From contig CALKEP010000056.1 of the NCBI GenBank assembly GCA_938084645.1, positions 4,813 to 68,812 of the forward strand: a stretch of 64,000 nucleotides of DNA, read 5' to 3'. Origin of the DNA: an uncultured Phycisphaerales bacterium (lineage in GTDB: Bacteria; Planctomycetota; Phycisphaerae; Phycisphaerales; SM1A02). Below are positions 54,901-57,900 of this stretch, piece after piece; positions within the stretch are counted from its first letter, which is position 1; each line of letters begins with the position of its first letter. The position numbers are program-made.

Positions 54901-57900
54901 GTTTCTCACCTTCCACAGTCTCGAGGATCGACGGGTCAAGCGAGCCTTCGCCGAACTGGACCGACGTGGCCTTGGAAGCGCACCGGCACGGATGCCGATC
55001 CTGCCCTCCGAGACCGAGATCGCGATCAACACCAGATCGCGGTCGGCGAAGCTTCGAGTCGCCGTGGTGGGCGACCGTGCCGAGCGAGCCTGAGGTTGCG
55101 AACCTCACCCGCTTGGGGAGCGGATCGAAACAACGGCGGCCTGCGAGGTCGCCCCGACAGCAGGGACGCTGACGACACATGACCCGAGATCACAAGCTTG
55201 CATTGGTGGTCGGCTTCGGCCTGATCCTCTTCGTCGGAATCCTCGTGACCGACCATCTCTCGGCCACCACGCAATCGGATGATCTCCTGCCCCAGAACGC
55301 GGTCACCAGCGACTGGGATCAACCGCTCACCCTCGCCGCCACGCCCCGTGCGACGTTCCGAGACGACGCGGTCGGGTCAGCCGCTCCCCGCACCACGCCG
55401 ATTCGCAACGAATCCCCGACTCGCGTCGCGGAAGCGGTGATCGAGCCGGAGATCCGCCTCGAACCGGAAGTGGTCGTCGAACGGCCCGTTCCGCGGTCCC
55501 CGGAACGGATCGTCCACGTCGTGCAGTCGGGCGAGACGCTCCAGGAGATCTCGAAGCGGTACTTCCAGACCGTTCGTCGTTGGAAGGACATCGCCGACGC
55601 GAATCGCGGCGTGCTTCCCAACCCGGATCGTCTCCGTTCGGGCATCCGACTCGTGATCCCGGACGCCACGGTCCGCACCGACGATCGTCGGATCCGCGAG
55701 GTCGTCGACGCGCGAACCTACACCGTCCGTCCCGGCGACTCGCTCAGTTCGATCGCCGGGCGTGAACTCGGGGATCCCCGTCGATATCCCGAGATCAAGC
55801 GACGAAATCGCTTGAACGGGGATTCCCTGCAGCCCGGACAGAAGCTCCAACTCCCCGATCGCTGAACGACCTTGGACAGGGTTCGAATCTCTTCATGTTC
55901 TGGAAGCTGATCCTCATCGTCCTCACCCTCGGTGGCACCGCCTGCGGTCTGCTGGTGCTTCGCCAGCAGGAACGTGACGTCTTCGCCACCCAGACCGTGC
56001 TTCGACGTGAGATCAGCCGGTTGGAGCACGAACTCCAGGCCAAGGCCCTTCGAATCGCGGAACTGAGTCGGCTCGAAGTGCTCCGCACCTATCGGGACGA
56101 GGCTGCGGCGAGCCGTGGCGTCTCCTGGCGACCGCTCCCGTTCGCACCCGACTTCCGGCGGTCCGCGATCCGTCCCGAGGCATCCGATGGCCAAACGGCC
56201 CCCGAGGCGAGCAACCGACCAGACCTGCCGCCCCGCGATCTGGCCTCTGCCGACGAGTCGACCGGCGCCCACTCGCGGGAGCCGAGCGTCCCCCACGGCG
56301 TCGAGACCGACAGGACCGGGAGTTGAGCCGGATGCATCGCTCCGACGGATCGACCGAATCACCTTCGCTGGAACCGGCTTCCGCGTCGATCCGAACCCGG
56401 GGCGACCGGGTCGCGAAACTCCTCCTCTGGGGAACCACCGCGCTTCTCGGGACCGCATTCCTCCGAACCGTCCAGCTCCAGGTCTGGCCGGACGAGACCG
56501 TCCTCTCCCTGATGGGCCGTCGTCACGCCACCGTGGCCGAGATTCGACCGCGTGGGGACATCTACGATCGAAAGGGACGGTTGATCGCGACCACCGTGCT
56601 CGGGCACGATCTCGGCGTCGATCCCAAGTTCCTCATGGACGTGGCCGACAAGGTCACGACGGACGCCGGCGATCCGATCCCCAATCCCATCGCCTGGCTG
56701 GCCGACACGGTCTCCATGCACACCGGAATCGAGCGGGAGATGCTCGAGGATCGTCTTGGCCCGGAACTCGTCGTCGACGTGGCCGCACTCATGCACGCCG
56801 CCTCGGCGCAGGGCGAAGAGGATCCGCTCACCCCGCTCGCGGCGGACATCGCCCGCAACACCGGACTCGATCGACGCGACGTCGAATCGATCCTCTTCGA
56901 CGATCTCGACGCGACCCGCGTGGTGCTCGCCGGTCCGCGCGATCTCCGCGACACGAATCTCCGGGAACTCCGGGCTGCACTTCCGGAAGCGGTCACCCTC
57001 GAGGGACTCGACGCCCGGTACGTCCGCCTCGCGCAGGCCGAGGATCTCCGCGACGTGGATCTCGCGATGCTCCGTTCGGAACTGCCTCCCGGCGTGGTGC
57101 TCACCGCCCGCCCGGACCGCAGATCGAACGCCAGCACCCTCGCGTCATCGCTGGTGGGCTCGGTCGGTGCCTATGAACCCCCGAACGCCCGACTCGGCAC
57201 CGAAGGACGCCAGCGCGGCCGTTCCGGTGTCGAACATGCCCGCGACGGGCAACTCAAGCAGACCCGGGGACGGATGACCTACCAGAAGGACGCCCGGGGA
57301 CGAGCGACCGAGGTCCGGGAGGGCGACTACGTCCCCGGCGGTGACGGAGACGACATCGATCTCTCGATCGATCTGGTGATCCAGCAGATCGCCGAGACCC
57401 GGCTCGCCGAAGCGGTCGCGGCCCACAAGGCCGTCGGCGGTTGGATCGTCGTCGTCGATCCGCGGACCGGCGACGTGCTCGCCGCTCACGACATTCTCGA
57501 CAACGCCGAGGCGCGACGCCGCGGGCCGACGATCTGGCCGCCGAACGCGCTCGATCCCGCTCGGGATGAACTCGGTGAGGCGCATGCCCGCAATCGCGTC
57601 TGGACCGACGTGTACGAGCCCGGATCGACGTTCAAGACGATGTTCTGGGCCTGGGCGGTCCAGCGAGGCCTGGCTCGACCGGACGAAACGGTCACGGATC
57701 GCGCCGGACGCACCACCCCCGGGGGTGGTTTCGCCACCTCCGGACTCTCCTTCTCCTATCCGGGGCAGCGTGGGCTTCGGCGGGTTCGGGACGCCTACGG
57801 AACGTCGAAGTCCGACTGGTCGACGTGCCTTGAAAAGAGCCTCAACACCGGCATGGCGATGGTCGCGCTTCGCATGGCCGATGACGACCGCCGACGCGGA

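Follow-up and report, generated by a model that had tools for sequence, protein, structure and literature searches.

A membrane-anchored LysM protein lodged in the rsmH-ftsL-ftsI operon of FtsZ-less planctomycetes, a candidate helper of septal wall synthesis

In the genome of an uncultured Phycisphaerales bacterium, a gene for a membrane-anchored protein with two LysM domains is inserted between rsmH and the division genes ftsL and ftsI, and it holds this place almost without exception in the class Phycisphaerae. The reading we favour, if tentatively, is that its product serves as a lineage-wide accessory tether of the septal peptidoglycan synthase; we infer how the protein docks, where it is located and in which direction it acts. 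It is a good candidate for a helper of wall synthesis at the division site, but probably not the replacement of FtsZ itself. The locus lies in a stretch of 64,000 nucleotides, which we call the window. Its relevant features are listed here by window position (C56 coordinates count along the contig):

54116..55093, + strand: rsmH (mraW), 16S rRNA methyltransferase (Pfam PF01795, E 5.4e-76; TIGR00006, 236 bits against a cut-off of 154)
55094..55178, + strand: spacer of 85 bases between rsmH and the LysM gene, with a purine-rich word resembling a ribosome site ahead of the LysM start
55179..55865, + strand: LysM gene, encoding a bitopic protein of 228 aa (helix, Pro/Ala-rich linker, two LysM domains)
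55179..55262, + strand: anchor of the LysM protein, residues 1-28, consensus M-T-R-E-x-K-(L/I/V)-(G/A)-L-x-x-G-...-G-x-x-x-S-D
55509..55664, + strand: LysM domain 1, residues about 111-162 (profile stretch C56:60327-60473; AF2)
55713..55859, + strand: LysM domain 2, residues about 179-227 (profile stretch C56:60531-60668; AF2)
55895..56326, + strand: ftsL, divergent, 143 aa, a membrane helix and coiled coil almost without cytoplasmic tail (matches of family members to three FtsL models)
56323..58674, + strand: ftsI, class B penicillin-binding protein (PBP) of division (Pfam PBP_dimer and Transpeptidase)

The start of ftsI overlaps the stop of ftsL by 4 bases. As mraZ lies elsewhere (G000:C52:66379), rsmH is the head of this operon fragment. 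Upstream of the LysM gene, the word AAGGA occurs in 39 of 82 regions from relatives, against a mean of 11 after shuffling, and an extended -10-like word, TGnTA[ACG]A[AC]T, occurs in 7 of the 82 against 0.3; no sigma-70 consensus site was found in the window itself. Contigs from RNA libraries span rsmH and the LysM gene in three runs and the LysM gene and ftsL in two. These contigs cover small shares of the stretch, so we claim neither an expression level nor a transcript start from them; they are compatible with one transcript for rsmH, the LysM gene and ftsL, which is less than a demonstration of it.

The LysM protein passes the Pfam LysM model (PF01476) with 66.2 bits against a cut-off of 20.9 (two stretches, E 2.5e-18). 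An AF2 model built on a 50-row alignment shows a helix at residues 3-31 (pLDDT 88-97), then a linker devoid of structure, and lastly two LysM folds whose pLDDT exceeds 90. The folds have the beta-alpha-alpha-beta arrangement of LysM, they retrieve LysM modules only in Foldseek (best E 4e-6), and the G-D/E-T-L..IA and N residues are conserved. It is plausible that the pair binds peptidoglycan glycan strands, as its sequence predicts. The basic N-terminus suggests an N-in, C-out topology, with a cytoplasmic part of about 5 residues, since the helix begins at residue 3-7. Relatives carry one to four LysM copies, two being present here, and a catalytic domain is absent. The Pro/Ala-rich linker spans 57-222 residues in Phycisphaerales and 213-462 in those Planctomycetales-type loci whose helix is clear. 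The genome has only two other LysM genes, one for a LysM-YkuD transpeptidase and one for a protein adjoining a secD-like gene.

By membership tests the protein is not FtsN, YneA or FtsB. Pfam finds no SPOR domain in it, and the NCBIfam YneA model (NF010723) aligns with one LysM only, at E 2.2e-7 and 30.7 bits against a cut-off of 60. We also considered and rejected an identity with FtsB/DivIC: the helix ends near residue 31 and gives way to a Pro-rich coil, and there is no DivIC match. The protein could at most occupy the membrane slot of FtsB. An Atlas search with the LysM protein returned only LysM clusters of Planctomycetota, and a plasmid search added nothing.

We next give the distribution of the gene in loci anchored on rsmH, whose selection is thus independent of the feature counted. 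A LysM gene follows rsmH in 59 of 60 Phycisphaerales loci (58 with LysM domains plus the incomplete L184, which shows the anchor), the genomes having been picked across six families from 100 genomes of the order among the matches listed. In the sole exception, G349, the LysM gene lies elsewhere and ftsL comes after it. For other orders of the Phycisphaerae the count is 38 of 40 rsmH loci (37 plus the incomplete L227), from 39 of 70 class genomes; the exceptions are L233, a second rsmH copy, and L241, which has no LysM gene. In Planctomycetia, sampled as 20 of the 46 genomes in the class of G141 (assigned by a Gimesia protein in family f9), 16 of 20 loci have the gene after rsmH and 7 have ftsI there. 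A named set anchored on ftsI shows LysM before ftsL in 18 of 20 Planctomycetales-type loci; the gene is lacking in L351, and for L353 there is no upstream DNA. The gene is thus near-universal at rsmH in Phycisphaerae. A preliminary description of this DNA had given the pairing for 395 of 885 genomes of the order; such counts are floors, since the rsmH-anchored ones are much higher. With only three LysM genes in the genome and the order kept across two classes, the position of the gene is more than chance.

The module itself is less rigid. Although ftsI lies within 3.5 kb of rsmH in 55 of the 60 Phycisphaerales loci, in 11 of the 40 loci from other orders of the class a LysM gene is present and a PBP is lacking over that distance (one of the 11 is incomplete), and ftsL does not follow in four f99 loci and in L196. 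Breaks occur on both sides of the LysM gene in Phycisphaerae. An apparently near-invariant N-terminus among 120 homologs from a word search was discarded as biased, and the rsmH-anchored set was used instead.

Outside these two classes few of the loci sampled have such a gene. The phylum sample comprised 40 loci from 150 matches listed of 301 phylum genomes, two of them Planctomycetia. Among the other 38, only L242, L273 and L280 have a gene for a helix and two LysM domains, and they have it between ftsL and ftsI. Thirty-four of these 38 genomes have no tubulin match, and in 31 of the 34 a LysM gene between rsmH and ftsI is absent, as it is in the Ca. Brocadia-titled locus L359 and in all four ftsZ-bearing genomes examined (L247, L252, L253, L271). 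As an outgroup control, a broad scan by RsmH alignment of 80 rsmH loci across bacteria found LysM in ten. Nine have planctomycete titles, some titles probably being wrong, and the tenth, L082, encodes a protein that begins in the same way as that of a Phycisphaerae locus. No LysM gene was seen at rsmH in 61 loci without a planctomycete title (five of these incomplete), and the planctomycete-titled L090, L096 and L107 had neither LysM nor PBP at rsmH.

In a FastTree phylogeny of RsmH plus FtsI, Phycisphaerae and Planctomycetia join (0.90), all with LysM, and L273 and L280 adjoin them (0.75). The tree holds 93 loci; Phycisphaerae were reduced to two loci per family, 25 outgroup loci were supplied and L122 serves as root, while loci missing RsmH or FtsI are omitted. 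A single insertion in the common ancestor of the two classes explains this grouping. The loci then all descend from a single event, so that their counts are not independent and show retention. The gene is older than Phycisphaerae and common to the budding Planctomycetia. A 46-residue profile of the anchor gave no clear match in most other classes, the best values, E 0.002-0.03, coming from 5 of 35 genomes that belong to neither of the two classes; it cannot demonstrate absence, since it misses true orthologs in Planctomycetia. One match, L465, is a gene for a helix and two LysM domains with no rsmH, ftsL or PBP in the 3 kb fetched.

The most conserved part of the protein is its membrane helix. 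Across Phycisphaerae, helix identity is 46-54%, compared with 22-32% for the helices of FtsL and FtsI. Mean pairwise identity over the same loci in Phycisphaerales (38 and 35 loci) is 50-52% for the LysM-protein helix, 32% for the FtsL helix and 24-27% for the FtsI helix; the LysM domains reach 37-39% and the first part of the linker 14%. In seven loci from other Phycisphaerae orders, the three helices score 54%, 23% and 25%. The picture is reversed in 21 Planctomycetales-type loci, where the LysM-protein helix reaches 33% against 45% for FtsL and 36% for FtsI, and the last LysM 54%; an R-E-x-K-x-G start persists in many of them. Class-wide (91 rows), K6 is conserved at 94%, L9 at 92%, G12 at 94% and G20 at 71%, and small residues occupy positions 8, 12, 20 and 24. 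A single membrane helix conserved to this degree suggests contact with another helix. The unusual constraint on it is found precisely in the FtsZ-less class that divides by fission, and it is relaxed in the lineage where ftsI, ftsW, ftsQ and mraW are deletable (PMC6952346, PMC10632474). Predicting the complex of FtsW, the FtsI N-terminus, FtsL and residues 1-40 of the LysM protein gave a score of 0.00 with controls not folded, a result that counts neither for nor against binding.

We turn to the other division genes of this genome. FtsL identity rests on the family: 22 of 40 members match NCBIfam FtsL_Actino (best 1.4e-13), 19 of 40 FtsL_COG5462 and 15 of 40 ftsL_broad at E<=0.1, and a profile of the 143-aa protein matches the gene ahead of ftsI in unrelated bacteria; the window's own copy alone gives only E 0.066, under the cut-off. 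There are two class B PBPs in the genome, as well as two SEDS proteins. The other PBP adjoins rodA and outscores the window PBP on the MrdA model (227 against 154 bits), so that position and elimination make the window PBP FtsI. An ftsQ gene of 312 aa, without Pfam or NCBIfam match, lies directly after ddl (G000:C81:4082-5017, - strand). Its predicted fold (helix, POTRA, beta domain) matches E. coli FtsQ at a best E of 5e-8 in Foldseek, and all nine matches at E<=0.001 are FtsQ chains. ftsW adjoins murG, FtsK-family genes are present, and a SPOR-domain protein, lipoprotein-like by eye, is encoded at C7:9154-9372. No tubulin/FtsZ match was found at E<=0.1 in this genome (97% complete), whereas 13 of 14 control genomes were positive. 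For FtsA, nothing exceeds the cut-off in the genome. FtsB was sought by four routes: the best DivIC match has E 0.2, nothing follows enolase, there is no second match to the FtsL profile, and none of four candidates fits a helix plus coiled coil. Its absence is provisional, the profile searches having missed FtsQ.

These results bear out much of the preliminary description, namely the gene order on the + strand, the 228-aa protein with one N-terminal helix and two LysM domains, the FtsL-like and ftsI identities of the genes that follow, the lack of FtsZ, and the scattering of mraZ, the mur genes and ftsW, to which we add ftsQ, over other contigs, the dcw cluster being split into at least five pieces. 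Its statement that FtsQ is missing is refuted by the gene after ddl. With FtsQ, FtsL, FtsW, FtsI, FtsK and a SPOR protein present, the divisome is less empty than had been assumed.

We could also observe degenerate ftsZ genes in eight Planctomycetota genomes of four families (G012, G048, G070, G095, G130, G146, G175, G193). Pfam tubulin detected ftsZ in 4 of 60 chosen genomes, and TIGR00065 in 7 of 121 sampled genomes, all under its cut-off. In G070, G175 and G146, ftsZ comes last in a dcw cluster, preceded by genes resembling ddl, ftsQ and ftsA; in G012, ftsA-ftsZ sit on a 3-kb contig; and in G048, G095, G130 and G193, ftsZ is found 14-17 kb downstream of rsmH, in the same orientation. RsmH plus FtsI of four ftsZ-bearing genomes cluster with a Ca. 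Brocadia-titled locus (0.99). The observation conflicts with the statement that ftsZ was lost in all planctomycetes (PMC12673574), and binning errors may contribute to it. A decaying ftsA-ftsZ pair in some Planctomycetota bears on the timing of FtsZ loss.

How might the LysM protein act? As an accessory tether, it would be made constitutively together with FtsL and FtsI. Its conserved helix would pack in the membrane against FtsW-FtsI-FtsL(-FtsQ), here a complex without FtsZ, FtsA and FtsB, while the linker would span the periplasm and the LysM pair grip glycan strands. The synthase could thereby be held at, and stabilised on, the wall under construction at the division site. The protein would work like the wall tether of FtsN while being constructed like YneA. 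Budding Planctomycetia can do without FtsWI or have lost it; in them, the constraint on the helix would have eased and the protein would have grown longer, becoming a less tight tether of the envelope. Several lines of evidence support this role: the order is kept (59/60, 38/40, 16/20, 18/20) while other dcw genes are scattered, the LysM gene left rsmH together with ftsL in G349, helix conservation exceeds that of the FtsL and FtsI helices in Phycisphaerales, and YneA and chlamydial NlpD offer precedents. Others argue against it. When the module splits, the LysM gene often stays with rsmH and not with ftsI, and gene order can last for transcriptional reasons alone. Losses of FtsW/RodA have been reported in planctomycetes (PMC12673574), and 9 of 12 Planctomycetia genomes without FtsW/RodA match (three families, single-protein query) keep the LysM gene, in its long form, beside rsmH.

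The preliminary description had gone further and made the protein a core part of the FtsZ-independent division machinery. The gene is indeed fixed in the division-operon head of Phycisphaerae. A core role is not supported: the gene persists in those nine genomes, is absent in 31 of the 34 other FtsZ-negative ones, and occurs in budding Planctomycetia as well. Transposon data from Planctopirus limnophila bear on the point indirectly. There, ftsI is Plim_1789 and mraW is Plim_2101/4021 (PMC12283558). The insertion index is 0.05-0.16 for Plim_1780-1799 and 0.06-0.13 for Plim_2099-2104 and 4019-4024, beside mraW, in contrast to genes such as Plim_0001, with an index below 0.01 (PMC10632474, source data). 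Every candidate gene around ftsI and mraW would thus be dispensable, the tag of the LysM ortholog not being pinned among them.

It is possible, if unlikely, that the protein is instead a general tether between inner membrane and wall, or a periplasm spacer, acting cell-wide, with a helix that self-associates or binds a partner outside the divisome and a place in the operon owed to co-expression with wall genes. Retention in nine of the twelve genomes without FtsW/RodA match suits this explanation, and so do the variable length of the linker and the small-residue spacing of the helix, which would also fit a homo-oligomer. It sits less well with a helix constraint that peaks where FtsWI-type fission is expected and falls below that of FtsL and FtsI in Planctomycetales, with the joint move of the LysM gene and ftsL in G349, and with L242, L273 and L280, three other FtsZ-negative lineages that place their helix-LysM gene directly before ftsI.

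A bolder form of the accessory-tether reading strikes us as improbable: the LysM protein would let FtsQ-FtsL-FtsW-FtsI of Phycisphaerae work without FtsZ, FtsA and FtsB, its helix taking the place of FtsB beside FtsL and its LysM pair keeping the complex on the wall of the division site. This would create a self-reinforcing, wall-guided ring, essential in fission-dividing planctomycetes and dispensable once budding arose.

We consider it distinctly improbable that the protein is a YneA-like brake, whose helix would bind FtsW and whose LysM domains would block glycan extension until removal, timing constriction without a Z-ring checkpoint. The LysM gene lies inside the division operon and not beside lexA, which is on C7. 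The DNA upstream of 82 orthologs shows enrichment neither of a LexA box of known type nor of a common palindrome, and the palindrome ahead of lexA is absent ahead of the LysM gene; the upstream DNA of lexA and recA in this lineage yielded no derivable LexA box. YneA measures about 100 aa in all, and the linker is far longer than its size would allow. What speaks for a brake is the match to the YneA model (albeit over one LysM and at about half its cut-off) and the two-part build as in YneA, whose helix does the targeting (PMC13396833).

Still less probable is an essential landmark that replaces the Z-ring, marks the division site and recruits FtsWI in the manner of MapZ. The gene is near-universal in Phycisphaerae, was acquired at the base of the clade with Planctomycetia (support 0.90) and does not occur at the locus in any of the four ftsZ-bearing genomes examined, all of which speaks for a landmark. 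However, L359 and 31 of 34 FtsZ-negative genomes of other lineages also lack it between rsmH and ftsI, and the candidate genes are dispensable in P. limnophila, a species with FtsK as its sole essential dcw gene (PMC10632474). With only about 5 cytoplasmic residues, the protein has no means to polymerise or to read the chromosome. An unrelated LysM gene that landed once, as a single insertion accounting for all loci would allow, and stayed by inertia is scarcely credible, given that it stayed while the dcw cluster broke into at least five pieces and that its helix is under strong selection.

We regard the LysM protein as a new, undescribed family. A literature search on planctomycete division, dcw, LysM and binary fission, with most subscription papers outside its reach, found no description of the gene, and the word LysM is absent from the main text of PMC5147048, PMC6952346, PMC10632474, PMC12673574 and PMC12283558. 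Reviews of planctomycete division name nothing but losses (of ftsZ, ftsB and mostly ftsA) and ftsK as the one essential gene (PMC12673574, PMC10632474). Against these losses the LysM gene is a gain. It entered the division operon in the lineage from which the two largest FtsZ-less classes arose, its helix is best conserved in the fission-dividing class, and it is a named target for localisation and deletion. The cases of FtsQ and FtsL also show that profile-based absences in these genomes can be false.

Compared with known systems, the locus resembles the canonical mraZ-rsmH-ftsL-ftsI head of the dcw cluster in that rsmH, ftsL and ftsI have the same order and strand. It differs by the extra gene between rsmH and ftsL, by the location of mraZ and the mur, ftsW and ftsQ genes on other contigs, and by the failure to find ftsA, ftsZ and ftsB in the genome. 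MapZ positions FtsZ via a cytoplasmic domain, and its wall-binding module is not a LysM; the LysM protein has neither of these. What it shares with MapZ/LocZ of Streptococcus is the general type, a bitopic wall-binding protein tied to division-site choice (PMC4931243).

With FtsN and other SPOR proteins it has in common a bitopic build, a long disordered linker and a C-terminal wall-binding module. FtsN couples the septal wall to FtsWI/FtsQLB (PMC10591338), and by analogy an equivalent tether role of the LysM protein is plausible. Here LysM replaces SPOR, the SPOR protein of the genome is separate, the cytoplasmic part of about 5 residues has no FtsA to bind, and the activating periplasmic peptide of FtsN is not recognised. 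NlpD of the chlamydial relative Waddlia is septal without FtsZ, binds peptidoglycan sacculi and has been credited with endopeptidase-like activity on the basis of an E. coli reporter (PMC4083446). Compared by LysM alone, it offers two such domains and a gene among wall and division genes in an FtsZ-less PVC bacterium; the planctomycete protein differs in its conserved anchor helix and in lacking a catalytic domain.

In YneA, the SOS division inhibitor of Bacillus subtilis, contact of the helix with FtsW TM7 brings about septal location, and the protein acts on septal synthesis via LysM (PMC13396833). YneA has one LysM and is LexA-controlled, unlike the LysM protein with its one to four LysM domains, long Pro-rich linker and seat in the ftsL-ftsI operon, upstream of which no conserved SOS box was seen. 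Both proteins consist of a single membrane helix and extracytoplasmic LysM without an enzyme domain, and the helix, which is the conserved targeting part of YneA (PMC13396833), is the most conserved part of the LysM protein.

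The division operon in the window is flanked by the following:

Window 53062–54075, plus strand: gene for a 337-aa membrane protein, ending 40 bases 5' of rsmH
Window 58752–63826, minus strand: convergent run encoding a WecA/MraY-family transferase, an NAD-dependent epimerase and a Wzc-like chain-length/P-loop protein

The 337-aa protein, for which Pfam and NCBIfam gave no match, is encoded at the usual place of mraZ before rsmH, and six of the seven close relatives with upstream DNA have the gene at the same position. The convergent run, whose transferase bears a long insertion, comprises surface polysaccharide genes.

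Three other FtsZ-negative lineages also have genes for a helix followed by two LysM domains, but not at the position seen in the window; there the genes lie between ftsL and ftsI:

L242:4576–6743, genome G063
L273:4688–6984, genome G079
L280:3236–5182, genome G055

These are either shuffled orthologs or independent recruits; G063 additionally carries a LysM lipoprotein gene between ftsL and ftsI. At three Planctomycetia loci without an FtsW match (L302, L307, L308), the LysM gene following rsmH is enlarged to an open frame of about 900–1700 codons containing long low-complexity stretches. One named MAG has the LysM-ftsL-ftsI stretch on two contigs (L031 and L033), probably an assembly or binning duplicate.

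Other contigs of the window's genome (G000) encode further LysM proteins and proteins with known or candidate roles in division:

C81:4082–5017 (L284:2083–3018), minus strand: FtsQ, assigned by position after ddl and fold
C7:9154–9372 (L288:4155–4373), minus strand: SPOR-domain protein
C33:32058 and C9:59890: two FtsK/SpoIIIE-family genes, either of which may be the division FtsK
C10 (L290:3628–5085), minus strand: membrane-anchored protein with a SecDF-P1-head-like and two LysM domains
C77 (L289:2607–3971), minus strand: LysM-YkuD L,D-transpeptidase

FtsQ was matched by neither Pfam nor NCBIfam profiles. The SPOR protein, the genome's sole SPOR match above cut-off, is a candidate additional septal marker; by eye, it has a lipoprotein-like N-terminal start and then a helical-repeat-like middle. 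The transpeptidase gene is evidence for a capacity for 3-3 cross-linking. The C10 gene immediately follows a large secD-like gene, and by domain content this locus combines protein export with wall binding, an unusual pairing.

Planctomycetota genomes from four families retain a divergent ftsZ:

G012:C123, G175:C21, G070:C1 and G146:C4 (loci L316–L319 and L451–L454)
G048:C25:29661, G095:C3:22561, G130:C204:57652 and G193:C6:19754

In the four cases checked, ftsA adjoins this gene. G012 has an intact glycine-rich GTP-binding loop; in G070, G175 and G146 this loop has eroded. The divergent genes look like FtsZ captured mid-decay, and they imply that FtsZ was lost several times separately within the phylum.
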